In this document: positions 205 to 36,046 of the stretch, one piece after another | Layout: every line of letters starts with the position of its first letter | Position numbering within the stretch: position 1 is the first letter of the stretch | Source of the DNA: Anaerolineae bacterium | GTDB taxonomy: Bacteria; Chloroflexota; Anaerolineae; Aggregatilineales; Phototrophicaceae | Length of the DNA: 64,000 nucleotides | Assembly: GCA_022842885.1 (NCBI GenBank) | Contig: JALHOR010000015.1 | Location: 2,219-66,218, forward strand | Direction: 5' to 3' | Translations under genes and position numbers: made by a program | The notes under the pieces: model-generated | Database searches by the model: none | Told to the model about the DNA's origin: nothing | Seen by the model: only the letters and a program-made list of their open reading frames with translations

Positions 205-789
205 ATGCAGTGTCCCAATTGCCAGCACTGGAACGAAGCTGGCGCACGCTTTTGTGAAGAATGTGGCTTTGAATTGGCACAAGCACCCGAAAAAGAAACG
301 CGGGTAAGCATTCGGGATGAGAATGGGGCTGTGCCATTGAGCGATTTATTGCCCAAACCGCCGCCCGTTCTACCGCCGACACAACCGCCGCTTGGTCTTC
401 CGCCGACGCAACCTGCACCGCGTTCTGCGTCTGCTGTACCGGATGCGGCTGATACGCCCGCTGTGCCGTTTACGGGCGCACGTCTCATCCTCACCAGCAC
501 CGGGTCAATTTTTAAGTTGGGCGAAGTCACCACCATTGGGCGACAAAATCCCACTGTGCAGATTGATTTTGAGGGCTATCCTGATGGCAAGTATGTCAGC
601 GGTCAACATGCCCGCATCCTGAAGATGCAAAATCGTTACTATATCGAAGATTTGGGTAGTTCCAACAATACCTATGTCAATGACATCAAATTGGCAAGCG
701 GGCAAATGGAGCCACTCAAACAAGGGGATAATGTGCGTATTGGCAAGATTGAACTGGTGTTTCATGAACCGCAGGATGACAAAGCATGA
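205..789 (+). CDS. Zinc-ribbon + FHA domain protein (small GarA/OdhI-style FHA effector with an added N-terminal zinc ribbon)
   Basis: N-terminus CPNCQHWNEAGARFCEECG (CxxC-12-CxxC). Pro-rich linker with a PPTQP repeat. C-terminal FHA signature TIGRQNP..VSGQHARI..YYIEDLGSSNNTYVND. The TGA overlaps the next ATG (ATGA at 786-789). Confidence 0.9.
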   Translation: MQCPNCQHWNEAGARFCEECGFELAQAPEKETRVSIRDENGAVPLSDLLPKPPPVLPPTQPPLGLPPTQPAPRSASAVPDAADTPAVPFTGARLILTSTGSIFKLGEVTTIGRQNPTVQIDFEGYPDGKYVSGQHARILKMQNRYYIEDLGSSNNTYVNDIKLASGQMEPLKQGDNVRIGKIELVFHEPQDDKA

Positions 790-2915
790 GCGTATCTGCC
801 AAAATCCCTTGTCCACACTGCCAACAACCGACCACAACCGACAGTGGCTTCTGCGATGAATGCGGCTTAGAACTGGCAACACAGCCCCTTAAACCGGTCA
901 CTGCAGCGCAAATCTTGGCAACTGGGTCATTGGAAAAGCGTACTGATTGTCCATTTTGTGGCTATAAACTGCGCCCCAATGCCAAACACTGCTCCAACTG
1001 TGGCAAAAAATTAGGCACGCGCCCCATTACCGAACCATTGCCCCTCTCGATGGTGCAGCAGGCGCTAGAAGAACCGGGTGTCATGCGCGTGGGGCGCGTC
1101 ATTTCTGACCGCTATGGCTTGGAAAAAATTCTGGGCGAAGGCGGCATGGGACGCGTATGGTTGGCGTATGACCGCAACCTGAGCAAACATATCGTCATCA
1201 AAACGGTGGTCGCACCTGATGAATCGTTACGCGCGGCGCTCAAAAAAGAGGCACAAACGCTCATCAATATTCGGCATCCTAATATTATTTCTGTGCTGGA
1301 TTTCTTCACGATTGAAAATGAATTATGTTATGTCATGGAATATGTGCCGGGTCCCAGTTGGGCAGATGAAATTGAAGAACCGATTGCCCGTAAGTTGGTG
1401 CAACCGCTGCCCGCCGAAGAAGCTCTACGGCGCATCAAGGGGTTGCTGCCCGCCTTTAAATATTTGCACGGATTGAACCCGCCCATCATTTATTGCGATT
1501 TTAAGCCATCTAACGTCAAACGGCTGACACTAGCAAACGGGGATATTGTGGAAGTGCTGCTCGATTTTGGCACTGCCTATACCTATGACCCCAAAGTGCC
1601 GCCCAAGCCAGCGCGTGGCACGCCGGGCTATCATTCGCCACAGGCAAAACACCCCGATTGGCGCGATGATTATTTTACGATTGGGCGGGCAATTGCCGAA
1701 TTGGTGGGCATGGCAGAGGTGCATACCGAAGAAAATCAATATACGCTGACCCCCGCCGATGTATTCCCGTGGTCAAGTTATGATGAATCGCTGCGCTATC
1801 TGGTTGAATGGATGACTGCCCCAGAACGAGAAAATCGTCCGCAAAATGTAGATGAGATTTTGCACGAATTGGATGGCGTCATTGGTTTTGTCAAAGGGCA
1901 AAAACCGGATTTAAAAGCCATGCGCCGCCAACGCCAGCGTGTCAGTTTTGCGGGTGTTACGTTGGATACCATCAAAGCCAATGCCATGACCGGCACCGTG
2001 ACGCATACCATCAAAATTGATTTCCCAGAAGTGCCAGCCGCGAATCCAGCAGCGACGGTGCTGCTCACCGCGCAAGAAGCATATCAACAGCGCGATTATA
2101 CGCGGGCGTTGATACTGGCGAACCAAGCGATTAATAATCATGGCGGCGCTTCAGCATATGCGCTGCGGGCAATGGTCTATAACCAGCAAGGCGATTTGCA
2201 GCAGGCACAAAAAGATTTGGTCATGGCACAGCGCCAAGGCGACCCCAAAGCCCAATGGGAAATGCTCATGGCAGAAGGACAACTCCATGAGAATGCTGGC
2301 AATTTTGAAAAAGCCGCTGATGCCTATCGTAAATTGATGGCACTGCGTCCCGGTGATTATCGCGGGCGCTTGCTGCTGGCAGATTTGTATCGGCGCAGCG
2401 GCAAAGCTGAACCTGCCATCGAAGAATATCAAGCCATTATTCAAGCCAAACCATCCGTCGGTTCGGCATATATTGGCGCGTCTAAGGCATATTTGGCGAG
2501 TAAACAACTGGATAATGCCATCAAAGTGCTGGAAGATGTCAGCAGCCGCAACGCCAGTTATAACGATGTGCTGCTGGAACTCATCGCGCTGTATAACGAA
2601 AAAGCCCAAATAGGTGATGTCAAAAGTCTAGAACAAGCGGCACGGGCGATTGACGTGCTGCAAGAAAATGGCGTCGAATCGCGTATGTATTTCCGGCTGC
2701 GCGGCGAATTTTATTTCACGGCGTATCAACTCGCTCGCAAAACAGGCGCTATTCCTAAATTGGTCTATCCCGATGGCACGATTAACACGTTGGCAGATTT
2801 GGCAAAGATGAATGAAGCCGCGTGGCGCGACTACCTTGCCCGCGATGACGATGCTGACCGCGATAAGATTATCAACACGCGCATTATGGCAGCCCGGACG
2901 TGGGCAGTGATTTGA
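786..2915 (+). CDS. Ser/Thr protein kinase with PknG-like architecture (two zinc ribbons, non-RD kinase domain, TPR repeats)
   Basis: Ribbons CPHCQQ..FCDECG and CPFCGY..HCSNCG. G-loop LGEGGMGRVW, VIK lysine (HIVIKTV), catalytic loop IIYCDFKPSN (Asp codon 1497-1499, no HRD Arg), LLDFGTA, GTPGYHSPQ. The C-terminal ~250 aa are TPR-like helices. Confidence 0.9.
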   Translation: MSVSAKIPCPHCQQPTTTDSGFCDECGLELATQPLKPVTAAQILATGSLEKRTDCPFCGYKLRPNAKHCSNCGKKLGTRPITEPLPLSMVQQALEEPGVMRVGRVISDRYGLEKILGEGGMGRVWLAYDRNLSKHIVIKTVVAPDESLRAALKKEAQTLINIRHPNIISVLDFFTIENELCYVMEYVPGPSWADEIEEPIARKLVQPLPAEEALRRIKGLLPAFKYLHGLNPPIIYCDFKPSNVKRLTLANGDIVEVLLDFGTAYTYDPKVPPKPARGTPGYHSPQAKHPDWRDDYFTIGRAIAELVGMAEVHTEENQYTLTPADVFPWSSYDESLRYLVEWMTAPERENRPQNVDEILHELDGVIGFVKGQKPDLKAMRRQRQRVSFAGVTLDTIKANAMTGTVTHTIKIDFPEVPAANPAATVLLTAQEAYQQRDYTRALILANQAINNHGGASAYALRAMVYNQQGDLQQAQKDLVMAQRQGDPKAQWEMLMAEGQLHENAGNFEKAADAYRKLMALRPGDYRGRLLLADLYRRSGKAEPAIEEYQAIIQAKPSVGSAYIGASKAYLASKQLDNAIKVLEDVSSRNASYNDVLLELIALYNEKAQIGDVKSLEQAARAIDVLQENGVESRMYFRLRGEFYFTAYQLARKTGAIPKLVYPDGTINTLADLAKMNEAAWRDYLARDDDADRDKIINTRIMAARTWAVI

Positions 2916-3434: not shown

Positions 3435-4679
3435 ATGAGCGCCTTCACTTTTAAAACATACTATAACAAACACATCAGCCCCACCACCAATTCGTTTTGG
3501 GGAGTGGTCTCGGTCACAGCAAATGAAACGGCACAGGCAATGGAAACAGTGGCTGTGACGTTAATATGCGATGTTTCAGGTTCGATGCAGGGCAACAAAT
3601 TTAATGCCATGATTGCCAGCACCGAAGATTTGCTGCGAACAACACCGGACGGCGTGATGTTGGGTGTGGTCGTCTTTGATGACCGCGCTGATGAAGCCGT
3701 GCCACTTGTTCGGTTAGATGCCACCGTTGACCGCGAAAAACTGGTTGACATGTTCCGGCGCAATATGCGGCAAATCAAAATTTTTGGTGGCACTGCCATG
3801 TCTACCGGCATTGATTTGGCGCTGAAACAGCAAGGCAAATTAGGGAATGAAGTTGCCCAATATGGCATTTTCTTATCGGATGGCAATAACACTGAACCCG
3901 AATCTCGCTTAGTGGAAGCGGTGCAAGCCGCCGCCGATACGACGATGCACCTATGCGCTTACGGTTACGGCAGCGATTGGAATCCGACACAATTAACGCA
4001 AATCGCGCAAATCACACAAGGTTGGATGCCCAAAGCCGTGCCTAACCCCGAACATTTACGCCAAGAATTTACGGCGCTCATCGCTCGCATGTCCAGAACT
4101 GTTGCCAGCGATGCCGTTCTGCACTTGTGGACGCCGACAGGCGCTAAAATTCTATCGCTCTCACAAGCCTATCCTGAATGGGTAAAAGGTGAAGCGGCGC
4201 CATTGGGCGATGACCATACTTGGGTTGTCCCGGTTCCGCCCATGTCAGCCGGCGACCACCGCGATTTTGTGGTGCATATCGAATTGGCAGCGGTGGGCGC
4301 TCGTGTGGCAGCATGTCGTCCGACGATGGTCTATGCGTTAGCTGGGCAGCGTGTCGAAGAAAAAGGCGATCAATCCACTTGGATGATTCTGGAACAAACG
4401 CACGATGCCGGACTGTATAATCAGGTAAATCCGGTGGTGGCAGGCTATCTGGGGCAAGGGCAACTGGCACGCGCTACGCAAGCCATGACAGAGGCTCTGG
4501 CAGCCGGGGATGTAAAAACCGCAGAACGGCATCGCACCGAAGCCCTAGAAATTGCCCAAGCCACGGGCAATCGCCCCATGACGCAAATTTTGCAAGACGC
4601 CAGCGGCAGCGAAGTCGCCCGTAAAACTGTTGCGCTTGGCACGTCCACTGTCAGCCTGACCGAAGATGAGAAAAAATAA
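3435..4679 (+). CDS. von Willebrand factor A (vWA) domain protein with a complete MIDAS
   Basis: VTLICDVSGSM (DxSxS), GGTAMSTG (Thr) and FLSDG (Asp). The C-terminal half is beta-rich and ends in a helical tail. Confidence 0.85.
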   Translation: MSAFTFKTYYNKHISPTTNSFWGVVSVTANETAQAMETVAVTLICDVSGSMQGNKFNAMIASTEDLLRTTPDGVMLGVVVFDDRADEAVPLVRLDATVDREKLVDMFRRNMRQIKIFGGTAMSTGIDLALKQQGKLGNEVAQYGIFLSDGNNTEPESRLVEAVQAAADTTMHLCAYGYGSDWNPTQLTQIAQITQGWMPKAVPNPEHLRQEFTALIARMSRTVASDAVLHLWTPTGAKILSLSQAYPEWVKGEAAPLGDDHTWVVPVPPMSAGDHRDFVVHIELAAVGARVAACRPTMVYALAGQRVEEKGDQSTWMILEQTHDAGLYNQVNPVVAGYLGQGQLARATQAMTEALAAGDVKTAERHRTEALEIAQATGNRPMTQILQDASGSEVARKTVALGTSTVSLTEDEKK

Positions 4680-4684
4680 AGCCC

Positions 4685-5110
4685 ATGCCCAATGCTCGTA
4701 AATTCTGTACCCAATGTGGGCATAGCAACCGCCGCACTGCCAAAGTCTGCGTGCAGTGTGGCGCGGCTTTTACGCGCCGTTTATTGGCAGAAACCAGCAA
4801 ATTCTGCCCGGAATGTGGCATCGAAAATAAAATAAGCACCAAATTTTGCCCGCATTGTGGTTATGCCTTAGTGCCAAAACCACCGGAAAAGCTCATTGCG
4901 CCACCCCTGATTCCTAACCCGGCTCCAGCAGTCGCTTTGCCGCCCATCGCTGAACTGCCACCGCCGCCTAATCCAGCTACGCCACCCGTCAGCAACCCAA
5001 CCAACACAACTAGCGAACCCGCTGTACCACTGACGCAGGCGGAAATTCATCTGCTGCGCCAATCCAAAAAACTTGTACTCAAATCGGCTCGCCACCGCAG
5101 GAAATCATAA
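4685..5110 (+). CDS. Double zinc-ribbon protein with a Pro-rich linker and basic tail
   Basis: FCTQCGHSNRRTAKVCVQCG and FCPECGIENKISTKFCPHCG. Pro-rich PPLIPNPAPAVALPPIAELPPPPNPATPP. C-terminus KSARHRRKS. Starts 5 nt after the vWA stop. Confidence 0.8.
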   Translation: MPNARKFCTQCGHSNRRTAKVCVQCGAAFTRRLLAETSKFCPECGIENKISTKFCPHCGYALVPKPPEKLIAPPLIPNPAPAVALPPIAELPPPPNPATPPVSNPTNTTSEPAVPLTQAEIHLLRQSKKLVLKSARHRRKS

Positions 5111-5113
5111 CTT

Positions 5114-6043
5114 ATGCATATCACGCACCATCTCCATGCCTCCGTTGAACATCCTGACCGCTGCGAAGATACGCTTTTGATTCTGAACCAAGCCGGATAC
5201 GCGCCCGTTTTTGCGGTCATTGATGGCATGGGCGGGCATCAACGCACTGCCCCGGATGGCACGCTCATCAGCGGACGCGAAGCCTCCCAAATGGTGAGCA
5301 AAGTGCTGAAAGAATTTTTGGGCGAGTTACCGCTTGATGCCGATGCTTCGGCGGGCAGCGACACAGAACAACGACTAAAAAATGCCATTATTCAGTCCCA
5401 TCGGCGTATCCGGCATGAACTGAACGGCGGCGATATTGGCTTTAGCGAATCGGTTGGCGCTGTCGCTACAGTGGTGGTTGTCTGTGAGAACGGGCAGCGG
5501 CTCCTCACCGCACAAGTCGGCGATACCCGGGGTTATCTTGTTTCCGAAGGCGATTTGATTCAGATGATACCGGATGAAGATAATGTCGAATTTTTGGTGC
5601 AGCGCGGCACTCTCAGCGAAGAAGATGGCGCTGTGATTAGCGATTTAATGAACATTTATGATGGCATCCATGAACCGGATGTTGAAGGCAAAGTTCACAT
5701 AGATGGGCAAGAATTTGACTTATATCTGGCGTGGCGCTGGTTTATGGTCGGCAATTCGGCATTGAGTATTCCGGGTGCCAATGTGGTTATCAGTGCTTTG
5801 GGGGTAGAAGATGAAGACCCGCTGCCCCTCACGTCACGCATTGAAATCAGTGTTGGCGATATGCTGCTGCTCTGTTCGGATGGTGTCTATAAAAATTTAG
5901 CGCACGATGAAATGCTCAAGCACCTAGAAACCAATGAAAATCGGGCAGAGGTGTTGTGCAATGCGGCTTATTTGCGCTCGCAAGATAAGACCAACAAGCG
6001 CATGAATCCCGATGATATTTCGGCGTTGGTGGTGGAATTTTGA
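5114..6043 (+). CDS. PP2C-family Ser/Thr protein phosphatase
   Basis: FAVIDGMGGHQ, AQVGDTRGY and LLLCSDGVY motifs. Starts 3 nt after the preceding stop. Confidence 0.9.
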   Translation: MHITHHLHASVEHPDRCEDTLLILNQAGYAPVFAVIDGMGGHQRTAPDGTLISGREASQMVSKVLKEFLGELPLDADASAGSDTEQRLKNAIIQSHRRIRHELNGGDIGFSESVGAVATVVVVCENGQRLLTAQVGDTRGYLVSEGDLIQMIPDEDNVEFLVQRGTLSEEDGAVISDLMNIYDGIHEPDVEGKVHIDGQEFDLYLAWRWFMVGNSALSIPGANVVISALGVEDEDPLPLTSRIEISVGDMLLLCSDGVYKNLAHDEMLKHLETNENRAEVLCNAAYLRSQDKTNKRMNPDDISALVVEF

Positions 6044-6157: not shown

Positions 6158-7456
6158 TCAGCTAGATTGGCTCGCCAATATAGAACGCAGGTGAGTTCGT
6201 CTGCCCTGAATGTCGAAGCAGTCCTGTTGATTATCGCTCATCAGCCGAGTCGCCAACTTGATTGCCTGTGCTTCTGTGAGTAAGCCATCGTTGATTTCCG
6301 CTTGCAGACTGCGTATCAGCCAGCGGCGAGACTGTGCAGCATAGGCAACAGACGAACTCGCCCACTGAGTATCACCTCCAAAAATGAAGAGCTTGTTTAT
6401 AGGGACTGTGTGAATAAACCGACGCACGAAATGGCTCGTAGTGTACGGGTCTATGCTCCATGCCCAACAGAGGTCAACGTAAACATTGCGGTAATGCTTG
6501 GCAATGGCGGCTAGTTCAGGATCATAGGGATAGGCAATGTGCATCAGTACGAAGCGTGCGTCGGGATAACGCTCCAACAGTCCGCACAAATGACCCGGCT
6601 TGATGCGCTCGACGGGCATCCGATTATTGCCAGCGTAGTAGCCAGTGTGGATTTTGAAGGGCAGATTATGTTCGATGGCAAGCTCAACGCCCCGCGACAA
6701 GCACCAATCCCCCAAACAAAGCTGTTCCTCGACGGTTAGCGTCACACCTCGCAAATATCGGTCAAGTACAGGTGCTACATCGGAGGCGGTGCGTTCTCGC
6801 CACAACAGCGTTCGTTCGTAGGCGTGCTGAGATTTGACGGCAATTGCGTTTGGACCATATTTAGCGAACAGGCTAGCCATTGCAATCTGTAAGGAATTCA
6901 GATCATGAACTTCATAGCCAGTTTCGGCATGAAGCTGAACCACATTGAAGTTAGCGTTGCAGAAATTTACCCACGAAAGGTCATAGAGAAAGAAATCCAC
7001 GCCAGAGCCATCAGGCAAGCAAGCCCACTCGAAATCATCGATCTGCACATGATCGAGGTTGCCTTCATCGCGCAGAATCCGAAGACGCTCGCCCGGTTGT
7101 CGGCGTTGGCGGTTGATTTCCATACTAGCTTCGATTCCCGCCAGCGTGATCTCATCCATGTTATACACATTCTGGGCAGTTAGTCGCACCGCTTCGCCAT
7201 ATCCGGTAAACTGACAGTGTATCCAGAAATCTTTCACAGCGTTCCAGCGCGTTGCAAGGTCGGGATTGCTGCTATCGACCAGTGCGCTAACCGCCCCCTG
7301 TGTGGCTCCTGCGGTAATTAAATCCGCTAGAATGTAATTATCGAACAAATCTGCCAGCACATCTGGACCGGCTTCGACGTATTTCCGTTCTGAAAGGAGA
7401 TGCTCATGGGTATCTATGAGGGGAGTCTGCTGAATATGCTGTGCGAGGTCGGTCAT
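6158..7456 (-). CDS. Amidohydrolase-superfamily metal-dependent hydrolase (TIM barrel)
   Basis: N-terminal LIDTHEHLL metal-binding motif. FVLMHIAYPY and DLCWAW-type later strands. Substrate not assignable. Confidence 0.7.
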   Translation of the reverse strand: MTDLAQHIQQTPLIDTHEHLLSERKYVEAGPDVLADLFDNYILADLITAGATQGAVSALVDSSNPDLATRWNAVKDFWIHCQFTGYGEAVRLTAQNVYNMDEITLAGIEASMEINRQRRQPGERLRILRDEGNLDHVQIDDFEWACLPDGSGVDFFLYDLSWVNFCNANFNVVQLHAETGYEVHDLNSLQIAMASLFAKYGPNAIAVKSQHAYERTLLWRERTASDVAPVLDRYLRGVTLTVEEQLCLGDWCLSRGVELAIEHNLPFKIHTGYYAGNNRMPVERIKPGHLCGLLERYPDARFVLMHIAYPYDPELAAIAKHYRNVYVDLCWAWSIDPYTTSHFVRRFIHTVPINKLFIFGGDTQWASSSVAYAAQSRRWLIRSLQAEINDGLLTEAQAIKLATRLMSDNQQDCFDIQGRRTHLRSILASQSS

Positions 7457-7560: not shown

Positions 7561-7788
7561 TTAATTTGTATAACAGTCGGAATCCCGCCAATCGTCTATT
7601 GGTAAGGCGTTCTCAACTTCACGATTCAATTTTTCAAGTTCACCTGCTGCCAATAACCACAACTCTTCTGGCTCAACATCGGTGTTTTGATGGTGCGCGG
7701 TAAGAAGGTTTAACCAACGCACTACTAATGGTAGGTGATTTTCGGGGATGTGTTGCAACGCCTCTATCCCCTGTTGCAAAAGTGTCAT
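7561..7788 (-). CDS. Small hypothetical protein (75 aa, acidic, helical)
   Basis: ORF only. Co-directional, 35 nt downstream of the 4-TM gene. No motif recognised. Confidence 0.4.
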   Translation of the reverse strand: MTLLQQGIEALQHIPENHLPLVVRWLNLLTAHHQNTDVEPEELWLLAAGELEKLNREVENALPIDDWRDSDCYTN

Positions 7789-7823: not shown

Positions 7824-9230
7824 TCAAAATTCCTGATAGCGATGATACAACCCTAATCCCATCAGCACCAACACCAGCGCATACCCCAACACCCCCAATA
7901 ACCCTTGATTGCGCGGGAGTTCGGTTTGCTGCTGCTGCCAAATCGTATCAAAGACAGCGCGATTAAGCGCCTGAACCTTGAGGATGGCAGCGGCAAAACG
8001 CCCGTAGGCTTCTTCGCTATCGCCTGTATCTACCCCAGTATTCAGTTCAACAGCACCTGCGATGTCGCCTGCATCTAGCAACGTTTTCAAAGATTGATGA
8101 ATGCCCAAATAGTCTAAGAGCGCCAACCGCGCCGTTTCCATAGAAAACGCCTCACCCCCAAAGGTGATGTTGCCCATCAGAGCCACATTAAAATCAGCCG
8201 TGCGGTCATCGCCCAATCCCGCCGCACTCACGACACTGCCTGCCGGAATATCGCCCGCCGTCACAAACGAGCTTTGCAAGCAACCGGGTTCACGGCACAT
8301 CAATTGCTCGACACTGGCAATATTCGCCTCAAAGCGAGCATACCAATCTTCTTTGCGAGCAGTATCAATCACGGCACTACTTTCGGCGCGGTTGGCAAGG
8401 CTGGCGTACACTAGCACCCGCGATGCGCCGCTGATGCTGTAATACGAATCGAGCGTCATGCGCGTTAAGGCATCGGGCAGGGATAATAAATTGAGCAGCA
8501 TCACTGCCAACAACGCAATACTGGCGACCATCGCCAAATCCAGACTGGGCGTTAAATAGCGCCGAACTTTACGCCGCAGCCAAAAAGATGTAAAGACCAA
8601 CGCCAACACCAATATCCCAGCCGGAATTGCCAATAAAAGCACTTGCCCATAAATATCTGTCCGGGCGCGAGTCGCGGCATTCACCATCAATTCAAAATTT
8701 ATGGCTTCCAATTGTTGCAGCGCCGGAATGATGCGATTGCGTAAATTGTCATCGGCAGCAAGGTATTCGCGGCGGGCAATATCGCTGTCGCTACGTCCAT
8801 CGATCAAATTGCTGACGTGCCGCCAAAAACGCGAATAGGTGTAGGTATCGGCAACTGTGAAGGCGGTCGTCTCTTCGGCAGTTTGTAAATTACGCCGCAA
8901 GATAAACATCTCATCCCGATAATCTTCAAAATTGCGAAAAATATCGTTCACTGCCTGTTCAAATAACGGGGTATCGGAGGATAATGCCGTATAATCTGCC
9001 GTCGCTTGGCTGACCCCCGCAATCGCCTGAAGCGCCGATTCCGCAGCATCCACTTTGATGCTGTTCAGCGTCGCAATCTCCTCAAACAAACGGAAAGCAA
9101 CCGTATAGGCATTCACCGCCTGTACCGCTGTCAGCAAAATCAAGACCGATAGCACCACGCCATCCAGAATAAGCCGGACACGGGTGGTCAGATTCCAAGC
9201 TGAGGTGGTGCGCGTCGTCCGTGTGGTCAT
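7824..9230 (-). CDS. Four-TM membrane protein with two large helix-rich extracytoplasmic domains (GlnX-like topology)
   Basis: Hydrophobic segments at about residues 18-40, 196-218, 230-251 and 443-462. Arg-rich N-terminus and an RRKVRRY loop place the 155-aa and 190-aa loops outside the cell. No cytoplasmic output domain. Starts 12 nt after the upstream SBP stop. Confidence 0.75.
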   Translation of the reverse strand: MTTRTTRTTSAWNLTTRVRLILDGVVLSVLILLTAVQAVNAYTVAFRLFEEIATLNSIKVDAAESALQAIAGVSQATADYTALSSDTPLFEQAVNDIFRNFEDYRDEMFILRRNLQTAEETTAFTVADTYTYSRFWRHVSNLIDGRSDSDIARREYLAADDNLRNRIIPALQQLEAINFELMVNAATRARTDIYGQVLLLAIPAGILVLALVFTSFWLRRKVRRYLTPSLDLAMVASIALLAVMLLNLLSLPDALTRMTLDSYYSISGASRVLVYASLANRAESSAVIDTARKEDWYARFEANIASVEQLMCREPGCLQSSFVTAGDIPAGSVVSAAGLGDDRTADFNVALMGNITFGGEAFSMETARLALLDYLGIHQSLKTLLDAGDIAGAVELNTGVDTGDSEEAYGRFAAAILKVQALNRAVFDTIWQQQQTELPRNQGLLGVLGYALVLVLMGLGLYHRYQEF

Positions 9231-9242
9231 GCGTTGTGTCCC

Positions 9243-10322
9243 CTATTTCCCGGTTAAAGCGCGGACTTCTTGCCAAGTGGTGCTGAATAAGGTTTCAATT
9301 GCTGCATCCGATTCCAGAACAAACAATTTGCTCAAAATGGCATCGGGGGGATAAATCGCCGGGTCATTCAGATAATCTTCGTAAATCAAACCTTCATCTA
9401 CAGTCCGCTGATTAGGCGTGCCATACACCGTATAATTGGCAATATCGGCGCTGACCTGTTTATCCAATAGATAATCTATAAACACTTCTGCCAGCGGCTT
9501 ATTTTTCGCGCCCACTGGAATCACCAGACTGGTAATATCGGTCACAGTACCTTCATCGGGGATGGCATAAACAATATTTTGGTCGGGGAATTGGTTTATC
9601 GTCTGGAACACATCACCACTGTATTCAATCACAATATCTACCTCACCTGCCGCCAGCAAATCTTGCCCGGTATCATCGGCGATGACAGTCACATTTTGGC
9701 TGTTTGCCACCAGATAATCGCGGGCTTGTGCCAAATCCGCCGGATTACTGCTGCTCGGATTCAGCCCTAAAAGATTAAGCGCCACGCCCAACATCAAGCG
9801 ATCATAATCAATCCATGCTACCCGCGCAGATGATTCAAACACTTGCTGCCAACTGGTGATAGTTTGCCCCACTCTGTCGCGGTTGTAGCCAATGCCGGTT
9901 GTTCCCCATAAATACGGCACACTGTAGCGATTTTCCGGGTCGAAAGGACGTTTGACAAAATTGGGGTTCATATCGGCAAAATTGGGGATGTTATCAAAAT
10001 TCAGCGGTTGCAGCAGATTCTCATCTAACATGGTTTCCATTGTAAAATTAATCGGGATGACCACATCGTAGCCATTGGGATTGCCTGCCCGCAGTTCATC
10101 TATCAAGATGCTATCTTCTTCAAAAGTATCATACATCACCGTCACGCTGCACAACGCCTCAAAATTGGAAATCGTATCTTCGGCGATGTAGGTTGTCCAG
10201 TTATAGACATGCAGCGTTTGCCCGGCAACATTAACAGGACACGCCCAAAAATCAGTGGTTTGCGCGGCAACGATGCCCGTCAGCCATAGACCGCATAATG
10301 CCAATACCCAGAACCGAGCCAC
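9243..10322 (-). CDS. PotD/PotF-like polyamine-type ABC substrate-binding protein (orphan: no permease or ATPase nearby)
   Basis: GTG start with GGGGGA 6 nt upstream. Signal peptide MARFWVLALCGLWLTGIVAAQ. LHVYNWTTYI, KRPFDPENRYSVPYLWGTTGIGYN and VIPVGAKNKPLA match the E. coli PotD pattern. Confidence 0.85.
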   Translation of the reverse strand: MARFWVLALCGLWLTGIVAAQTTDFWACPVNVAGQTLHVYNWTTYIAEDTISNFEALCSVTVMYDTFEEDSILIDELRAGNPNGYDVVIPINFTMETMLDENLLQPLNFDNIPNFADMNPNFVKRPFDPENRYSVPYLWGTTGIGYNRDRVGQTITSWQQVFESSARVAWIDYDRLMLGVALNLLGLNPSSSNPADLAQARDYLVANSQNVTVIADDTGQDLLAAGEVDIVIEYSGDVFQTINQFPDQNIVYAIPDEGTVTDITSLVIPVGAKNKPLAEVFIDYLLDKQVSADIANYTVYGTPNQRTVDEGLIYEDYLNDPAIYPPDAILSKLFVLESDAAIETLFSTTWQEVRALTGK

Positions 10323-10630: not shown

Positions 10631-11761
10631 CTAACGGCTAGGATGCAACTCAATTGGATAATTGGAGAGCAGTTCGCCGCCATGTTCCGTGACGAGATAC
10701 ATATTCTCGATACGAAAACCGCCATTAAGCTCCGATAAATAGACGCCGGGTTCCATCGTCACCACGCTGCCCACTTGCAGAATACCGCCGCGTTCTGGAT
10801 TCATATCCGGTTGTTCATGAGCGCGAAGCCCGATATTATGTCCGGCGTGGTGCGTCAAACCCACTTCGGCAATGGCAGGATGTTGGCGCAAACGAGCATC
10901 CAACCAATGATACAATGCTGTGCCATCCACACCGGGTTTTAGCTGTACCGGAATATCAGCAAAAATGGCTTTGATATGCTCAAACACCGAGTGCTGCAAA
11001 TCGCTAACCATATCACCGACAATAAATACTCGTGATAAGTCTGACCAATAGCCACGATAATTTGTCCACGCATCAATGATGTAGAGTTCGCCTGCTTGGA
11101 TTTGGCGGTCACGCGCAAAACCACCCCCTACCCCACATTGATAATCACCATTGTGATACACCTCTTCGCCTGCGGCGATTACCGTCGCTTGTTTTGCGGC
11201 GGCAAACACATCACATTCGCGCACACCGGGCGCAATCATCTTTTGGGCGGCATCATACGCGGCACAATTAATCGCTACCGCTTTTTTAATCAGTGCCAAT
11301 TCATCGGCATCTTTGCGGATTTGCATCGTTTGTAAAGTTTGGTCTATAGCGACCCATTCGAGTGCGCCGAGTATGGTTGTCGCCGTTTGCAGCAGCAGCA
11401 TGGGTGCAAATTCTGCCTGATAGCCGATGCGTTGGGCAGATTTGCTGGATAATTGTGTGTGGAATAACGCATTGGCACGCGAGAGCAAATCCGGGTGACT
11501 TGTGCCGCCGGAATTATGCGGATATGGCAAAAATTCGTTGACATACGGTTCGCCGCCCACTTCGGGCGCAATCAAAAACGTTGTGCCATCTGCCCCCAAC
11601 CAGAAAACACCGGGCAGAGTCACAGGTAGCACGGGCAATAATTTTCCCGTGAAATAATAAATATCATGTCTATCCGTAATCAGCACCGCATCCAAATGAT
11701 GTTCAGCGAGAATTTGTTGTAACCGTTGTTGACGTGTTAAACAACCATCTTGAGTGAGCAT
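10631..11761 (-). CDS. M24-family Xaa-Pro aminopeptidase / creatinase-like peptidase
   Basis: HHAGHNIGLRAHEQP, TMEPGVY and GGFRIENMYLVTE metal-ligand motifs, plus an N-terminal creatinase-like domain. Confidence 0.85.
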   Translation of the reverse strand: MLTQDGCLTRQQRLQQILAEHHLDAVLITDRHDIYYFTGKLLPVLPVTLPGVFWLGADGTTFLIAPEVGGEPYVNEFLPYPHNSGGTSHPDLLSRANALFHTQLSSKSAQRIGYQAEFAPMLLLQTATTILGALEWVAIDQTLQTMQIRKDADELALIKKAVAINCAAYDAAQKMIAPGVRECDVFAAAKQATVIAAGEEVYHNGDYQCGVGGGFARDRQIQAGELYIIDAWTNYRGYWSDLSRVFIVGDMVSDLQHSVFEHIKAIFADIPVQLKPGVDGTALYHWLDARLRQHPAIAEVGLTHHAGHNIGLRAHEQPDMNPERGGILQVGSVVTMEPGVYLSELNGGFRIENMYLVTEHGGELLSNYPIELHPSR

Positions 11762-12047: not shown

Positions 12048-12857
12048 CTATAAATCTTCGCAGCAGGTACGGCGTTTGATGATGTCGGTATTCAGCCATG
12101 TAACGCCCTGAATGGGCAGCCCGTTGATTTGTGCCAAAAGCTGCCGCGCTGCCCGCCGCCCTAATTCGACGACATCTGCCGCTACTGTGGTTAAGCCCAC
12201 AGTTTCGGCTTCGGGACCATCACCAAACCCTGCCACACAAATCTCTTGTGGAACGCGCCGCCCCTGCGCCCGCAGCACATTTAAAGCAACACACGCCATC
12301 AAATAATCAGCAGCAATGACGGCATCAAAAGTGATGTTGGTTTTCAAAAATGTTTGTAATGCTTGTGCCGCCACTGTCGGAATGAAATCACCCGCCAAGA
12401 CCCGCGCTGGTGGCAGTGGCAAGTGATGGCGCATCAGGCTTAACCGAAAGGCTTCGTCGCGCTGCTGACCATCTAACTGCTGCATATCGCCTTGGATAAA
12501 GACAAATTGCTTACACCCACATTCCAATACCATATAATCCATCAAGCGTTCAATTCCCTCCAAATTGGCGGGCATGACCGCCGGAATAGGCAAACTCGCT
12601 ACGGTGTGGCTAACGAGTGTTACAGCTTTCCCTGTCCCATGTACCAACGCTAGTTGAGCATTATCAAGCGCCGTCGTCAACACAATTACGCCGCTGCACA
12701 ACGGAATCGCTGAGGGTAAGGCTTGATGGCGCGGGTCAGAAATTTCGATGCGGACTTCAAAGTTATGCCGGTGCATCTGCCAACGAATACCATCAATCAC
12801 ATGACGCTGGAATACGGCATTCGGGTCATTGGTCACAACACAAATCATATTTGCCAT
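12048..12857 (-). CDS. LacI-family periplasmic-binding-fold ligand-binding domain protein lacking the HTH
   Basis: The protein begins directly in the sugar-binding fold (MICVVTNDPNAVFQRHVIDGI ...AVIAADYLMACVALNVLRAQGRRVPQEICVAGFGD) with no N-terminal HTH. Its ATG shares one nucleotide with the ROK stop (TGATG at 12855-12859). Confidence 0.75.
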   Translation of the reverse strand: MANMICVVTNDPNAVFQRHVIDGIRWQMHRHNFEVRIEISDPRHQALPSAIPLCSGVIVLTTALDNAQLALVHGTGKAVTLVSHTVASLPIPAVMPANLEGIERLMDYMVLECGCKQFVFIQGDMQQLDGQQRDEAFRLSLMRHHLPLPPARVLAGDFIPTVAAQALQTFLKTNITFDAVIAADYLMACVALNVLRAQGRRVPQEICVAGFGDGPEAETVGLTTVAADVVELGRRAARQLLAQINGLPIQGVTWLNTDIIKRRTCCEDL

Positions 12858-13987
12858 CAGAATAACCCCAATTCACGATGTAAAGCCCCCACCACTGCCC
12901 CCCGTAGGGTCAATTGTTGGCGGTTTGCCAGCGATAAATGAACTGTTTCCAACATCGTCTGGGGAAAGCGCAGGGCTAAACCACGCTGGATAGCATCTAA
13001 CAACGGTTGCCCGGTATCGCTCAACTGCCCGGCAAGCACAATTTCTTCCGGGCGAACCAACCCAATAATCCAAGTATAGACCTGCACCAACAACGCTGCC
13101 AATTCATCTACCAACTGCTGCGCTACCCTATCTCCATCCAGAAATGCCTGTCGCAGACCTAAATAAGTAGGCAAGGCGGCGGATAAAGAACTCTGGGTAG
13201 ACGCTGCCAATAAAGCCTGCAAGCGCATTAGCACTTGGTCATGGCTGAGGGCATTGACTGTCGTGCCGTCTGCCAGCGATAAAGGGCGTAAATCGCTGCC
13301 ATGCCGATACCCATTCGCAAAAGTCAAGCCGATTTCGACGGTATGATTAATTAACACCACCGCTAGATTTTTGACCCCACGCGGATTGTCGTAGACGATA
13401 CGGGCGCGGGCAGCCAATTCAGTATTATTGCTGACATAAACTGGCACCCTGTAACGGGCGCTCAACGGGGCGCTGATTGGCACTTGCGACCACCCCAAGT
13501 CAGTAGAGGCTTGGACAATACCCCGGTCTTCATCCACGATGCCCGGCACCCCCAACCCGATGCACAACAACGGCGCATCGCATTGTGCCATCAGTGCATG
13601 AATCACATATTCGATGGCGGTCATCAACGGCAAATCAGCCCGGTTTAATTGGTGGCGGGCAACAATGGCAGCATTCAAATTTGCCAAACACCCCATAATC
13701 ACATCATCGTTGATGGCAATGCCAATCACTTGCCGCGCAATGGGTACGAAACGCAGCAGCGTTGGGCGTTTGCCGCCGCCTGCCGTTGAAGCGCCTTGCC
13801 CGGTTTCTTCAACCAAGCCTTGCCCCATGAGTTCACTCACAATATCGGACACGGTGGGTTTGGCAAGACCTGTTTCTTCGGAAAGGGTGGCACGGCTGCA
13901 ACCGGGTTGTTCATAAATGGAGCGCAGCAGCAGTTGGCGATTATGCTTTTTGAGTTGCTGCCGGGTGGCTTTGTGATGGCGATTCAT
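12857..13987 (-). CDS. ROK-family transcriptional regulator (wHTH + ROK sugar-kinase fold)
   Basis: LKKHNRQLLLRSIYEQPGCSRATLSEETGLAKPTVSDIVSELMGQGLVEE wHTH followed by a ROK fold. I prefer the ATG at 13987, because the track's TTG at 14053 abuts the terminator T-tract. Confidence 0.8.
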   Translation of the reverse strand: MNRHHKATRQQLKKHNRQLLLRSIYEQPGCSRATLSEETGLAKPTVSDIVSELMGQGLVEETGQGASTAGGGKRPTLLRFVPIARQVIGIAINDDVIMGCLANLNAAIVARHQLNRADLPLMTAIEYVIHALMAQCDAPLLCIGLGVPGIVDEDRGIVQASTDLGWSQVPISAPLSARYRVPVYVSNNTELAARARIVYDNPRGVKNLAVVLINHTVEIGLTFANGYRHGSDLRPLSLADGTTVNALSHDQVLMRLQALLAASTQSSLSAALPTYLGLRQAFLDGDRVAQQLVDELAALLVQVYTWIIGLVRPEEIVLAGQLSDTGQPLLDAIQRGLALRFPQTMLETVHLSLANRQQLTLRGAVVGALHRELGLF

Positions 13988-14054
13988 CAAATACAATATC
14001 TTTCGGGATAACAATGATGGGGTGATTATGCCGCGTTTTTTGTCATCCGCCAAA

Positions 14055-14179: not shown

Positions 14180-17100
14180 TTAACGATAGTGCCGCCGCCG
14201 GATGACCCGGAAAGCGACAACGGAAATTGTCATTACAACAGCGCCAAATGCTGCCAACAAGAGCAGACGCACGCCACTCCACGGTGATTCACCCGTGCGC
14301 GGCAAAGTCGTCACCACGCGGGCAGTCACCGACCGCGCTTGTCCACCGGGGATATTATCAGCGACGATGGTTGCCGTATTATTGACTTCCACCCCGCCGC
14401 GCAGCACAGTCGTAAAGATGCTCATCTGTACAGCTTCGCCCGGTGCTAGGTCGCCCAGTGAGAATGTCACCGTTTGCCCAGAAACACTCGCTGTCCCTTT
14501 GGAAGTAATCGCCCGGTCAACGCGCAGTTCACTCCGCAAGTTATCAGTCACGATAACATTGGTGCCTACGATAGTGCCAATGTTACGTGCCACAATCACC
14601 CATTCAATTTGTTCGCCGTTAACGCCCAATTGTCCGGGCAGCAGCAGCCCAATCTTGCTTAAACCGGGGTCAAAGACCGAAATTTGCGGATTCACTGTCA
14701 CTGAGCCAGCCACCTGTGCGCCCGGCGGTAGCGGTTGACCATCGGGACCAATTTGTGCCGGATTAGCCACATTGCCAGGAGGGGCATCTACCACCGTCAC
14801 GGTGACAGTCGCGGTATCGCACAAGCCGGACAAATCGCAAATCGTGTAAATGAAGCTGAGTGTCCCCACAAAATCTGTCCCCGGTTGCACACGCATTGTG
14901 CCGGTAACTGGATTGATGCTGGCGATGAAACCGTTGATGGGTTCGGTGATATGGATGACACTGCCCGGATTTAGCGCATTTTCAGGGTCAAAATCGTTCA
15001 GCACCACTGGCACTTCAATCGCCTGATTTTTGTTCGTTTGCGCCACATCATCCGCGGCAATCGGCGGCAAATTCCCACCAATCAACACCTGAACAGTGGC
15101 AGCCGCAACCACTGCGCCAGCCCCATCTGAGGCGGTGAAAGTACGGGTGTAATCCGTCGCCGGAGCCACTGCATCGGTGCAGGTAAAGGTCTGTTGAGCG
15201 CCAATCGCTAAGTCAAAAGCCGGAATGATACAGGTTTCTGGCAGACCCGCTGAATTGGTAATGGCAAACGAAATTCCGGTTAGGTTAGTATTGCCATTAT
15301 TGCGGATAGACAGGTTGAAGGTAACGGGCTGACCTGTGCCGACAGTTTGGGTATTGGGTGTCACGCTAACAAATAACGATGGCGCATTGATATTTTGGAC
15401 AATCGTGACGGTCGCCACATTAGACACGTTGGTGGTGATGTCGCGGATGGTATAGGTGAGCGTTACACTGCCCAAAGTTGGCACAGCCGGCGCAGTGTAA
15501 TCAATATTTTGACCATTCACCACGGCTGTCCCTTCGGCTGGAGCCGTAACAATCGTCACAGCGACAGCGCCGGGCGCAAAGGTATCGTTGGCAGTCACAT
15601 TCACCCCCACCGTTGCCCCCGCCGCGACCACCGCCACATCATTGACGGCAACGGGTGCGGGCAGCGGATTCACTGTAATCGTCACAATGGCAATGGCAAC
15701 ATCCGCGCCATTAACAATCTGATAAGTGAACGTATCGGTGCCGCTGAACCCGGCATTGGGCGTATACGTGAACGAGCCATCGTTAGCCGTCGTCAAGATG
15801 CCGTTATCCACGTTATCGGTCACATTCACTGTGACACCAGCCACCGGATAAATATCATTCGCCAAGATACCCGGCGCAGCCGTCAGCAGTGTTTGCCCCT
15901 GATTCACATTATAAGCATCGTTGGTAGCTGCCACGCTCGACAACGGATTGACTGTAATGGTCACTGTCGCCGGGGCGCTGGTTGCTGTACCATCCGTGAC
16001 GGTGTAATTAAATGTGTAAACTCCGGCGAATGTAGCATCGGGCGCGAAGAACAGTGACCCATCAGGATTGACGCCCAACCATGCCGGATTACCCGAATGT
16101 CCCGTAGGGGCAACCACCGTGATGATGGCGTTATCTACATCGGTATCATTAGCAAGAATGCCGGGTGCTGCCACACTTAAGATGGTGGCTTGCGTGATAA
16201 CAAAGGCATCGGCAACGGCGACAGGTGCATCGTTGACTGGCGTTACCGTAATGGTGACAATCGCCGTATCGAGATTTGTTGCCCCATCATCCAATTGATA
16301 GACAAACGTATCTGTGCCGTTGAAATTGGCATTCGGCGTGTAGGTAAACGACCCATTAGGATTCATGACTAATATACCGTTATCCACATTGTCCATGATG
16401 GTGATGGTCACGCCGCCGACCGGCACAGTATCGTTACCGAGAATGCCGGGGGCAGGAACGTTCAATACCGTATCTTCGTTGGTGGTATAAATATCATCAT
16501 TGGCAACCACCACCGGCGGATTGACATTGATAGTGACCGTCGCCACATCGGTTACGCCGCCGCTGGTCACATTGTATTGGAATGTATCAGCACCCAAGAA
16601 ACCAGCATTCGGTGTATAACTGAACGACCCATCAGCGTTGAAAACGAGCGTTCCATTATCTACATTATCTACGAGAGCAACGGTTGCCCCAACTGGGAAT
16701 ACATCATTCGCCAAGTAACCCGGCGCAGCCGTCAGCAGCGTTTGTCCAGAGATAACCGCATAAGTATCATTCACCGCCGCCAGAATATTCACAGTCACGG
16801 TCGCTACATCGTTATTGACGCTATCGGTTGCCGTATACGTGAATGTGACCGGCGTGGTGCTGCCCGCTGTGTGCTGGAAGGTGAAACTGCCATTAGCATT
16901 GAGGGCGAACCCAGTCACACCGATAGGCGGTGTCGCAACAGTGGCGGTCATCCCCGTTGCCGGGAAGTCGTTTAACAAGACACCCTGTGCCACTGGAATA
17001 TTGGCTAGCGAACCTTCAGCAATCAGATAGGTATCATTGACTGCATCCACTGGAACAGCTGCATTATTAAAGGTACAAGTCGCGGTTGCGCCTTCTGCCA

Positions 17101-25300: not shown

Positions 25301-25871
25301 ATATCCCTCCGACGGGACTTGATAACCAGAGCGTGAAGGCTTCATCAACATAAAACCATAATACACCCTATGCGGACTGCCGATAGGATGTTTCAGTAGC
25401 ACATTATTTATCGTAGAAACGATTTTATCAAAACACCAAAGACGGTTCATACCAGCCCCACACTTGCCGGTAAAAGATAAGTCTATTTAGCTTTTATACC
25501 CGCTTATAGTATCCACCCATTTTGCTTACCGTTTCACAAAATTAACTTAACGGTATCATTATTTTAAAGTTGAAATACAATGAATTTTACACCCAATTTG
25601 TTGTTATTTTGTGTAGATTTGGTGCGTTAATTGATTTATATTAAATATCCTTACAAAACCCCTAACATTTTAGGTTGAGTAGTGGCAAAACTTGCAAAAT
25701 TTTGTTAGTGAAACCCATTTTTAACCTTGCAAATCTACTACTCGTCCGTTTTTTCCTTACAAATCCATAACAATGTCAGGGTGTTTTAATATGTCGCAAT
25801 TTGTATCAATTTCTTTATGTGGTTGCAAGAGCGAGATAACCAGTTTTTATATTTCTTAACAACATCCTTCT

Positions 25872-29183: not shown

Positions 29184-30011
29184 GACTAACCCCCTAGAAC
29201 GGAGCAGAACGATGGGGATGGCGAACCTTACAAAATACCAACTTTTCCTAAAAAAACTCTCGTGAATTTATAGTAAAAAGATGGGTTTGTGAGCCGCTGC
29301 ATCCAAATAACTGGCTAGCAAGGGAAAAACGCCCTTTTTTCCTTACAATCGTAAATACATCTTGACACTCAGTCCACTAAAAACTAAATTAACATAATTT
29401 ACGACGTTTAGCAAGAGGTCGGCGAAAGTATTTTTAGGTTTTTTGCACATTTCGATATTAATAAACAAAATTACCTTGCAATTTTTGCGGCGTTAGTTTT
29501 AGTAATATACACACAAAACACCAACGCGATAAAAACATCTTGCTCAACATATCTTTTTTTGCCCAAAGTCGCCTAACACAAGACTCTTTCTGAGAAGCGT
29601 TCATAACAAATTTTTAATCATCCCAGATGCAGTTAGCGAGGCTTTTCCTAACAGAAATTTATTTTTAAGATGCGTTTAAAAGTATTTCTTAATTTTTGTG
29701 GCAGATTAGTGAATGTTCTTCGCATCTTAAATAACAATGACAATGAAACAACAAGCAACTTGTAAACACTCTTTTAGTTTCACGTAATGTAATGAGGATT
29801 ACAGTAGTGTCAGCGGCAATATAGGTTATCACTATCATTCATGCTGCTACCCTTAACACACTATCCCAATTTTGGGATGTTCTGTATACTTTTATGACAT
29901 ACAGGCAAAATTCCCTTAACATTTATCCAGTATAGTGTAGGTGCTGGTCATTAATTCTTATTGCAGCCAACACTAACCATCATCAAATCGTCAGGGAAAA
30001 AGGCAAAAGTT

Positions 30012-31775: not shown

Positions 31776-31811
31776 GTTTAAACATGATATAGTTTGAATA
31801 TCTAACAGACC

Positions 31812-31832
31812 AATGGGCAAATTTTGCCCATT
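31812..31832 (+). terminator. Hairpin between the initiating transferase and the rest of the EPS operon (possible attenuator or partial terminator)
   Basis: AATGGGCAAA-t-TTTGCCCATT perfect dyad followed by atctgtttc. The T-tract is weak. Confidence 0.3.
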
Positions 31833-31906
31833 ATCTGTTTCAGGTGCAGACTAACCTTTTTCAAACGGTCAGACAACATAATTCTATCAAAAACAGGTGG
31901 TGAGGC

Positions 31907-33139: not shown

Positions 33140-33178
33140 GTAAACCGTCCGTCAGTTTAGTTCATATAGGACAGCGTA

Positions 33179-34534: not shown

Positions 34535-34540
34535 ACGAGC

Positions 34541-36013: not shown

Positions 36014-36046
36014 TTCCATCGCTGTCGGCAAGGGGGCAACATCATC

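Follow-up and report, generated by a model that had tools for sequence, protein, structure and literature searches.

A putative GlnX-type transmembrane sensor paired with a PotF-like binding protein beside a PknG-like kinase cassette in Anaerolineae

Two adjacent genes in a 64,000-nucleotide (nt) stretch of an Anaerolineae genome (Phototrophicaceae, Aggregatilineales, Chloroflexota; contig JALHOR010000015.1, positions 2,219 to 66,218) probably encode a transmembrane sensor of the GlnH/GlnX type that depends on a solute-binding protein (SBP) and feeds a neighboring PknG-like kinase. In Mycobacterium tuberculosis and Corynebacterium glutamicum, the GlnH–GlnX–PknG pathway governs the 2-oxoglutarate node. 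The whole stretch is called the window here, and positions are counted from its first letter. The proposed ligand sensor, a secreted PotF/PotD-like SBP of 359 amino acids (aa), is encoded at 9243..10322 on the minus strand, and a GlnX-like transducer of 468 aa with four transmembrane (TM) helices follows on the same strand at 7824..9230, after a gap of 12 nt (9231-9242). An original prediction, made from the letters of the window without database searches, had proposed such a sensor with a swapped class of SBP feeding the neighboring kinase; the two open reading frames (ORFs) and the gap between them are exactly as it gave them. The reading itself is supported by the homology of the components, the 4-TM architecture, the tight coupling of the SBP and GlnX-like genes, their linkage to the kinase cassette, and the exchange of SBP classes in related loci.

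Homology of the transducer to GlnX

The 468-aa protein matches the NCBIfam model NF058618, named 'GlnX family signal transduction membrane protein' (E 1.6e-23, 83.5 bits), over residues 152-468 of the protein and positions 138-412 of 413 of the profile. A family profile built from 45 sequences (A1) and searched against 1.84 billion representative proteins recovered 773 proteins at E <= 1e-3. Among its full-length remote matches, 88 of 89 match NF058618 and 80 of 89 match NF041460, the model for 'protein kinase G-activating protein GlnX'. Six of the 10 remote matches checked individually score above the 250-bit cutoff of NF058618, and members of NF058618 match NF041460 at E 1e-8 to 7e-26. Alignment of A1 with 82 GlnX-family sequences by hhalign gives a probability of 100 and an E of 1.8e-41 over 436 columns. 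The alignment covers residues 15-468, and therefore all four TM helices and both ectodomains are homologous to those of the GlnX family. The resemblance to GlnX, which the original prediction had left at the level of topology, is extended by the NF058618 and hhalign matches: the 468-aa protein is a homologue of the GlnX family over its full length. All relatives recovered with a second alignment (A2, first sequence P0101) are from Chloroflexota/Ardenticatenales, with no mycobacterial GlnX named among them, and the link to mycobacterial GlnX is transitive, resting on the NCBIfam models.

The motifs common to the 468-aa family and the GlnX family are RRxxRR..P, ANxxES, NITFxGE, and a C-terminal G...R..E. 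The first of these belongs to the cytoplasmic loop (RRKVRRYLTP in the window protein, RRxRRxxNP in the GlnX family), and ANxxES and NITFxGE are located in ectodomain 2. The C-terminal tail reads G...HRYxE(L/F) in the family of the window protein, with HRYQEF in the window protein itself, and G...PRLxE(Y/F) in the GlnX family. G460, R464, and E467 are invariant among the 45 sequences, in which the final residue is L or F, and they align with G...R..E(Y/F) of GlnX. This motif is noteworthy because an E437A/Y438F double mutant in the conserved C-terminus of Mycobacterium smegmatis GlnX fails to complement a glnX knockout (2026 preprint).

A Pfam scan of the 468-aa protein at E <= 10, with a library that does not hold PF28326 (Sensor_actino), gives no match. 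One homologue has a weak match to TarH (E 0.011), and one distant homologue is annotated with PF28326 'Sensor_actino'. A database search finds 78 close clusters at 35-84% identity to the protein, whose named members are all 'hypothetical proteins' of Chloroflexota or Anaerolineae, and none of these clusters (P0001-P0078) carries a precomputed Pfam annotation; by exact look-up, the window protein is unnamed and two relatives are named 'hypothetical protein'.

Architecture of the transducer

Hydropathy places TM segments at residues 18-36, 197-215, 232-250, and 443-461. The loops between them (ectodomains, residues 37-196 and 251-442) are 160 and 192 aa long, close to the 155 and 190 aa estimated at the outset, and both are helical in an AlphaFold2 (AF2) model, as had been anticipated. 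This model, made with the 45-sequence alignment, has a predicted local distance difference test score (pLDDT) of 90.8 and a predicted template modeling score (pTM) of 0.84. Its first unit consists of helices at 9-82, 88-113, 118-144, and 149-222, and its second of helices at 228-249, 251-288, 290-312, 360-386, a short 390-398, and 405-467. Each loop has four long helices, of which the outer ones (first and last) extend into TM helices. The modeled architecture is that of the 'helical tandem module', the name given to the arrangement of C. glutamicum GlnX (Sundermeyer et al., PMC9769921), and the predicted assignment of the ectodomains to the four-helix-bundle fold rests on DSSP helix topology and homology. 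In ectodomain 2, an insert (313-359) adjoins C312 and C317, which are invariant in the 45-sequence alignment. The Arg-rich N-terminus and the RRKVRRY loop fit the cytoplasmic side by the positive-inside rule, and the protein has no output or enzymatic domain.

Linkage to a PknG-like kinase cassette

The neighborhoods of homologues were inspected in L001-L008, and a scan of one genome per GTDB species gave 25 loci. By label, these are mostly Anaerolineae, Aggregatilineales, Ca. Flexifilum, or Phototrophicaceae; three are labeled only Chloroflexota/Chloroflexi, L016 is labeled 'Bacteroidetes bacterium', and L030 only 'bacterium'. A survey of this kind had been suggested by the original prediction, and it finds the cassette next to the GlnX-like gene in 20 of the 25 species-level loci (tblastn with the window proteins), in three gene orders. 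The count takes in L018 and L026, in which the cassette is cut by the contig end. Three of the remaining five loci (L011, L021, and L025) stop at a contig edge where the cassette is expected, and the most divergent two (L033 and L034, 36-40% identity) seem to lack it, L033 showing 3.3 kb downstream only. Immediately 5' of the GlnX-like gene, 19 of the 25 loci have a PotF-like SBP gene, at 46-58% identity and, in the inspected loci, with a spacing of 2-49 nt. The cassette is convergent in the window, L010, and L012-L020; L022-L024 and L026-L031 show the divergent order, and L032 the co-directional one. For instance, the SBP and GlnX-like genes of L003 converge on PP2C-DZR-vWA-kinase(PknG_TPR)-FHA, the cassettes of L004, L005, L007, and L008 diverge from an SBP gene followed by the GlnX-like gene, and L002 has the convergent order and no PotF-like SBP. 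The adjacency has survived at least two rearrangements within the family.

In the window, the five cassette genes lie on the plus strand. The first (205..789) encodes a 194-aa FHA protein (Pfam FHA, E 1e-16) and overlaps the start of the kinase gene. All eight PDB matches of this protein are to GarA or OdhI and are weak (E 4e-6 to 1e-5); unlike GarA/OdhI, it has an N-terminal Zn ribbon and no obvious ETTS-type phospho-motif; a Pro-rich linker is also present. It is a candidate phospho-dependent effector or substrate. The second gene (786..2915) encodes the PknG-like Ser/Thr kinase, 709 aa long, in which a double Zn ribbon, a kinase domain, and a PknG-type TPR domain follow one another in this order (Pfam DZR; Pkinase, E 2e-25; PknG_TPR, E 1.4e-11, 44.2 bits with a gathering cutoff of 27). 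Its top five PDB matches are all PknG, from M. tuberculosis or C. glutamicum, and the alignment with 2pzi runs through the kinase and TPR domains (residues 100-625, E 2e-21). The catalytic motifs VIK, DFKPSN, and DFG are intact. The N-terminus has four CxxC motifs (CPHC, CDECG, CPFCG, and CSNCG), three of which are CxxCG; Pfam calls a double Zn ribbon here and leaves PknG_rubred unmatched. Lisa et al. (PMC8546545) recognize a rubredoxin module by either PknG_rubred or two CxxCG motifs, and the latter are present in this kinase. The remaining genes encode a 414-aa vWA-domain protein (3435..4679; Pfam VWA_3 and VWA), with orthologues 67-73% identical in 19 of the 25 loci; a small double Zn-ribbon protein of 141 aa (4685..5110), identified by its Cys motifs, with DZR-annotated orthologues in L002-L008 and further tblastn matches; and a 309-aa PP2C-type phosphatase (5114..6043; Pfam PP2C_2, PP2C, and SpoIIE), which presumably reverses the kinase. 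The FHA and PP2C genes are conserved in the cassette across loci (tblastn).

The operon of the pair had been predicted to converge on the cassette, the two ending at 6158 and 6043. This holds if an Amidohydro_2 gene between them (6158..7456, minus strand; Pfam, E 4e-17) is counted in the operon, and not otherwise: 367 nt separate it from the GlnX-like gene, and no related locus has an amidohydrolase homologue by tblastn. The gene lies outside the conserved system. The spacer contains a 75-aa ORF directly 3' of the GlnX-like gene (7561..7788, minus strand), which has no Pfam match, is 72% identical to L001 11411-11614, and is kept in that closest relative only. A promoter and terminator scan of 5900-10900 gave counts not above those of shuffled sequence, and operon boundaries were not obtained from it. 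On the far side of the SBP gene lies an M24 peptidase gene (10631..11761, minus strand), a homologue of which is kept only in an 84%-identical relative (tblastn). The peptidase and the amidohydrolase were considered as hints to the ligand and dropped, the former being kept in that one relative and the latter in none.

Metabolic genes adjoin the GlnX-like gene in some relatives. In L004 (11539-14130), these encode a dihydrolipoamide-dehydrogenase-like flavoprotein and a lipoate ligase, and in L006 (3146-7176) they are sdhCAB. Such tricarboxylic acid cycle and 2-oxoacid dehydrogenase neighbors could reflect the part that PknG/GarA plays in metabolism, or their position could be a matter of chance.

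The PotF-like binding protein and its pocket

The SBP begins with a signal-like hydrophobic segment and matches Pfam SBP_bac_8 (E 2e-25) as well as SBP_bac_1, SBP_bac_6, and SBP_bac_11; searches with Pfam, NCBIfam, and the PDB give no match to SBP_bac_3, the class of GlnH. In NCBIfam, it matches PotF (E 3e-59, 200.7 bits, under the equivalog cutoff of 636) and PotD (E 1e-48, 166 bits, under the equivalog cutoff of 582). Its best PDB matches are all polyamine binders, with E. coli PotF first (E 7e-52).

For the pocket, 22 family SBPs were aligned with E. coli PotF and PotD, the PotF sequence used being consistent with that in the PDB alignments. The polyamine-contacting residues of PotF are W37, S38, D39, Y40, S85, E185, W244, D247, F276, D278, and Y314. 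At these 11 positions, the window SBP has, in order, W, T, T, Y, I, L, Y, D, D, T, and Y. Most of the 22 SBPs keep W37, Y40, D/E182, D247, W276, D278, and Y314 (PotF numbering), and this aromatic and acidic pocket is compatible with an amine ligand. The majority have no acidic residue at PotF positions 39 and 185. The SBPs of the window, L001, and L021 form a distinct set with I/E85, Y/N182, L185, D276, and T278. Because several PotF ligand residues are replaced in the window copy, 'polyamine' serves as a family label only and is doubtful as the ligand of this SBP. The expectation of a polyamine-type SBP with a signal peptide stands as to the PotF/PotD class and the signal-like N-terminus, and is doubtful as to the ligand, since the pocket has diverged from that of PotF.

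An N-terminal FWxCP extension and a Cys pair (C28/C58 in the window) are found in 21 of the 22 family SBPs and are absent in PotF and PotD; the exception, L018, is a fragment cut at a contig end. A lipoprotein was considered and rejected, since no lipobox surrounds the conserved Cys28, which lies eight residues past the likely site of signal-peptidase cleavage; Cys28 is more likely paired with Cys58. A second pair, CxC, occurs near PotF position 250 in 20 of the 22 family SBPs, the window copy and one other being without it.

Transporter genes around the pair

That no ATP-binding cassette (ABC) permease or ATPase lies near the SBP gene, as first noticed from the ORFs, holds over a wider range. 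No ABC ATPase is found in the 64-kb window by tblastn with MalK-type probes. Permease genes are found only at about 45.5-48, 57.6-60.4, and 62.5-64 kb, with CUT1/Opp probes that are slightly less sensitive for PotB/PotC, and each of these regions carries its own large SBP ORF. In the annotated loci L001-L008, no Pot-type permease or ATPase stands beside the pair.

Another transporter, encoded by an Opp/Dpp-like ABC operon (SBP_bac_5 and two permeases), recurs immediately next to the sensor and kinase genes of three genomes, in L002 (5064-8961), L004 (1-2988), and L007/L008 (1-3038). The gene coupled to the GlnX-like gene of L032 is also of the SBP_bac_5 class.

Distant GlnX-like loci with other binding proteins

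More distant GlnX-like genes are also found beside PknG-type kinases. In L037 (61% GC), the order is kinase-PP2C-vWA-FHA-GlnX-like-SBP_bac_3; in L032 (54% GC), the GlnX-like gene is followed seven nt later by an SBP_bac_5 gene and then by FHA-kinase-vWA-Zn ribbon-PP2C; and the contig of P0113 has Peripla_BP_6-kinase-vWA-GlnX-like-DZR. P0113 belongs to an intermediate group whose named relatives in the A2 search are Ardenticatenales or Chloroflexota. Three other loci have no SBP gene: L036 (58.5% GC), with kinase(rubredoxin+TPR)-DZR-PP2C-vWA-DZR-GlnX-like; L038 (68% GC), a metagenome locus found with a narrower GlnX alignment (A4), in which the kinase gene overlaps the GlnX-like gene; and L039 (32% GC), with vWA-FHA-GlnX family member (271 bits)-coiled coil-PknG-PP2C. 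The copy in Streptacidiphilus (L035) stands alone, with no kinase or SBP gene nearby.

With the PotF-like proteins, at least four SBP classes are encoded with GlnX-like genes, the others being SBP_bac_3, SBP_bac_5, and Peripla_BP_6. The constant partner is a PknG-type kinase, usually with vWA, PP2C, and FHA or Zn-ribbon genes, and the SBP varies in class or is absent. A varying SBP class at a constant kinase partner is what the idea of a swapped ligand class predicts, and loci with a PknG_TPR kinase do carry SBP_bac_3 (L037), SBP_bac_5 (L032), and Peripla_BP_6 (the P0113 contig).

On L039, a contig of 9378 bp and 31.7% GC, the GlnX-family member scores above the NCBIfam cutoff and is accompanied by vWA, FHA, PknG (rubredoxin and TPR), and PP2C genes. 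A member at such low GC indicates that the family probably extends beyond the high-GC Actinobacteria. A protein of about 400 aa recurs in the distant GlnX-like/PknG cassettes (L036 1197-2438, L037 1863-3146, and L039 4254-5429). It has no significant Pfam match and weak ones of coiled-coil type; the L039 copy is rich in K, E, and N, and the protein is not found in the window cassette.

Proposed mechanism and alternatives

The physical interactions, the direction of signaling, the ligand, and the downstream target are modeled here on the actinobacterial pathway (PMC6069109, PMC8546545, PMC9769921). The secreted PotF-like SBP would bind a small extracellular ligand, probably an amine, in a pocket that is remodeled in the window copy. 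The liganded SBP would dock on the paired four-helix ectodomains of the GlnX-like protein, and the change would travel via the four TM helices to a small and highly conserved cytoplasmic face formed by the RRKVRRYLTP loop and the HRYxE(L/F) tail. This face may recruit or activate the PknG-like kinase, most likely via its TPR domain. The kinase would then phosphorylate the Zn-ribbon/FHA protein, and perhaps the vWA protein, and the PP2C phosphatase would reset the system.

Several points weigh against this reading. The NF058618 score of the transducer (83.5 bits) is well under the 250-bit curated cutoff, and NF041460, a mycobacterial equivalog with a cutoff of 780 bits, is unmatched by the protein at E <= 0.1; the transducer is a distant GlnX relative and not an orthologue. 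A Foldseek search of the full-length AF2 model against the PDB gives no match at E <= 0.001; the matches listed are all-helical, and the best by probability (0.85, non-significant) is an integrative model of a methyl-accepting chemotaxis protein (9a65_A), so that the search speaks neither for nor against the four-helix-bundle fold. Ectodomain 1 modeled alone with an 11-sequence alignment gives a poor AF2 model, with a pLDDT of 49. The window SBP is changed at the PotF ligand residues D39T, S85I, E185L, and D278T. In the window, the non-conserved amidohydrolase gene and the 75-aa ORF stand between the sensor pair and the cassette, and since the two are on opposite strands, their co-regulation is only putative. 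Across the family, a PotF-like SBP gene is missing from L010 and L020, where the GlnX-like gene and the cassette are present, and L033 and L034 have neither SBP gene nor cassette. One clade accounts for the convergent order and another for the divergent order, so that the 20 loci represent only a few independent rearrangements.

An unlikely alternative is that the cassette is a stress, developmental, or conflict-type module and not a nutrient sensor of central metabolism as in Actinobacteria, with the GlnX-like protein as an anchor or envelope-state sensor and the SBP accessory or irrelevant. Trios of vWA, kinase, and PP2C proteins occur in GTPase-centered conflict systems of Actinobacteria (PMC7159879), and a report on Deinococcus ties a vWA-Ser/Thr kinase-FHA-PP2C operon to DNA-damage signaling (bioRxiv 10.64898/2026.01.23.701218). 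GlnX-like genes stand with PknG-like genes in the SBP-less L036, L038, and L039, as in L010 and L020, and a 2026 preprint on GlnH suggests that GlnX may by itself hold PknG at the membrane. Nevertheless, 19 of the 25 family loci have the SBP gene, in tight coupling with the GlnX-like gene; among solved structures, the kinase and the FHA protein are closest to PknG and GarA/OdhI, which are metabolic regulators; and no effector, toxin, or NTPase genes of conflict-system type are seen in the cassettes.

It is rather improbable that the SBP is an ordinary polyamine-type component of ABC uptake, with permease and ATPase elsewhere in the genome and an adjacency without meaning for signaling. It is common for an orphan SBP gene to serve a transporter encoded elsewhere. 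The homology to PotF/PotD is clear, all PDB matches of the SBP are transport SBPs, and the genome beyond the 64-kb window might carry potABC, a further point against the sensor. However, the SBP gene is present in 19 of the 25 loci, 2-49 nt upstream of the GlnX-like gene in those inspected, although its product has only 46-58% identity, no annotated locus has a Pot-type permease or ATPase beside it, and sister lineages place three other SBP classes at the same position. The FWxCP extension and the Cys pair are specific to the family and absent in PotF/PotD. Transport and signaling are also compatible roles, as Tar uses maltose-binding protein, which is a transport SBP too (cited in PMC9769921).

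That the pair is a sensor with an output other than the adjacent kinase, the adjacency being inherited synteny without function, is very unlikely: the two units of the window lie on opposite strands with 1.8 kb and unrelated genes between them, each gene order is restricted to one clade, and the neighbors in L034 are a different kinase and a dCache histidine kinase, but the adjacency outlasted at least two rearrangements and recurs in distant lineages with very different orders, including the overlapping kinase and GlnX-like genes of L038, and the GlnX-like protein, which lacks an output domain, has conserved cytoplasmic motifs that match those of GlnX.

Other genes in the window

Upstream of the M24 peptidase gene, 12048..14053 (minus strand) holds two genes: that of a 398-aa ROK-family regulator with an N-terminal helix-turn-helix overlaps by one base the start of that of a 269-aa LacI-type periplasmic-binding-fold protein without a DNA-binding domain. 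The region 14180..25450 (minus strand) is a 3756-aa ORF with six Big_9 domains and cadherin-like, DUF11, DUF7507, and malectin domains, and looks like a giant surface adhesin. Next along the window come a 1077-aa regulator (25950..29183, minus strand), in which GAF domains and a receiver domain are combined with a Trans_reg_C DNA-binding domain at the C-terminus, and an exopolysaccharide-type cluster (29961..39992, plus strand) with a Bac_transf priming transferase, three GT4 glycosyltransferases, an AAA_31 protein, a Wzy_C polymerase/ligase, and a Polysacc_synt flippase.

Relation to known systems and significance

The sensor of the window is read here as working like GlnH–GlnX–PknG, with a transducer in the wider GlnX superfamily, and its kind is already known and not categorically new. 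The likeness to the GlnH–GlnX–PknG–GarA/OdhI pathway of Mycobacterium and Corynebacterium (PMC6069109, PMC9769921, PMC8546545) extends to most components. Each transducer has four TM helices and two helical ectodomains but no output domain; the two are homologous from end to end and have the cytoplasmic RRxxRR loop and the R..E motif at the C-terminus in common. In both, an SBP gene is adjacent, and the kinase consists of a Zn-binding module, a kinase domain, and a PknG-type TPR domain; the FHA protein of the window has GarA and OdhI as its nearest relatives of solved structure. In contrast to the actinobacterial pathway, the present system occurs in Chloroflexota (Anaerolineae/Aggregatilineales relatives), its SBP is PotF/PotD-like (SBP_bac_8) whereas GlnH is SBP_bac_3, and its transducer falls far below the family cutoff, leaves NF041460 unmatched, and has a Cys-bearing insert in ectodomain 2. 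Whereas glnX, glnH, and pknG form one operon, the sensor pair and the kinase are here in separate transcription units, and the kinase gene is one of a five-gene cassette whose vWA, Zn-ribbon, and PP2C genes have no counterpart in the operon.

Other systems share single features. In NspS–MbaA of Vibrio cholerae and Sinorhizobium meliloti (PMC8079147, PMC9993111), a PotD-family SBP likewise acts as a signal receptor via a membrane partner and not via an ABC transporter. MbaA, however, is an enzyme of the GGDEF-EAL type that has a periplasmic domain of its own and a cyclic di-GMP output, whereas the partner here is a GlnX-type relay without an enzymatic domain, whose presumed output is Ser/Thr phosphorylation. 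In Tar with maltose-binding protein and LytS with XylFII (PMC9769921), a TM-flanked four-helix-bundle ectodomain receives a liganded SBP, as is predicted here. Tar and LytS have one bundle per chain, form homodimers, and carry their own cytoplasmic signaling domains, in contrast to two bundles in tandem on one chain without an output domain; the likeness is one of helix topology. In Deinococcus DRA0331-0334 (bioRxiv 10.64898/2026.01.23.701218) and the trios of PMC7159879, vWA, Ser/Thr kinase, FHA, and PP2C proteins are encoded together as they are here, but the accessible parts of these two sources describe the modules without a GlnX-type sensor, an SBP, or a PknG-type TPR kinase.

The literature consulted treats the pathway as actinobacterial, and PknG orthologues have been described as mostly restricted to Actinobacteria (PMC8546545); outside them, this literature mentions only isolated PknG homologues, in Ktedonobacter and Calothrix, neither with a GlnX or SBP partner. 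Even in Actinobacteria, the model is without direct proof of contacts between GlnH and GlnX or between GlnX and PknG (PMC9769921; 2026 preprint). A Chloroflexota GlnX relative that stands with a different SBP beside a PknG-like cassette therefore suggests a relay that is older and more modular than this literature describes. It can tentatively be proposed, as a possibility that falls a little short of an even chance, that GlnX-type tandem bundles are a phylum-spanning adaptor that couples interchangeable SBPs to PknG-type kinases inside an old vWA-FHA-PP2C-Zn-ribbon module; the actinobacterial operon would then be a reduced derivative, and the loop and tail a universal docking site for the TPR domain.

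The GlnX-type relay is present in Chloroflexota and on contigs of 32-68% GC, with vWA, FHA, and PP2C proteins as recurring partners. The lineage-specific SBPs amount to natural 'domain-swap' experiments on the SBP–GlnX interface, and the cytoplasmic residues conserved across phyla provide a short list of candidate kinase-docking sites. A function can also be proposed for about 80 protein clusters (90% identity) that are listed as unnamed or 'hypothetical protein'.

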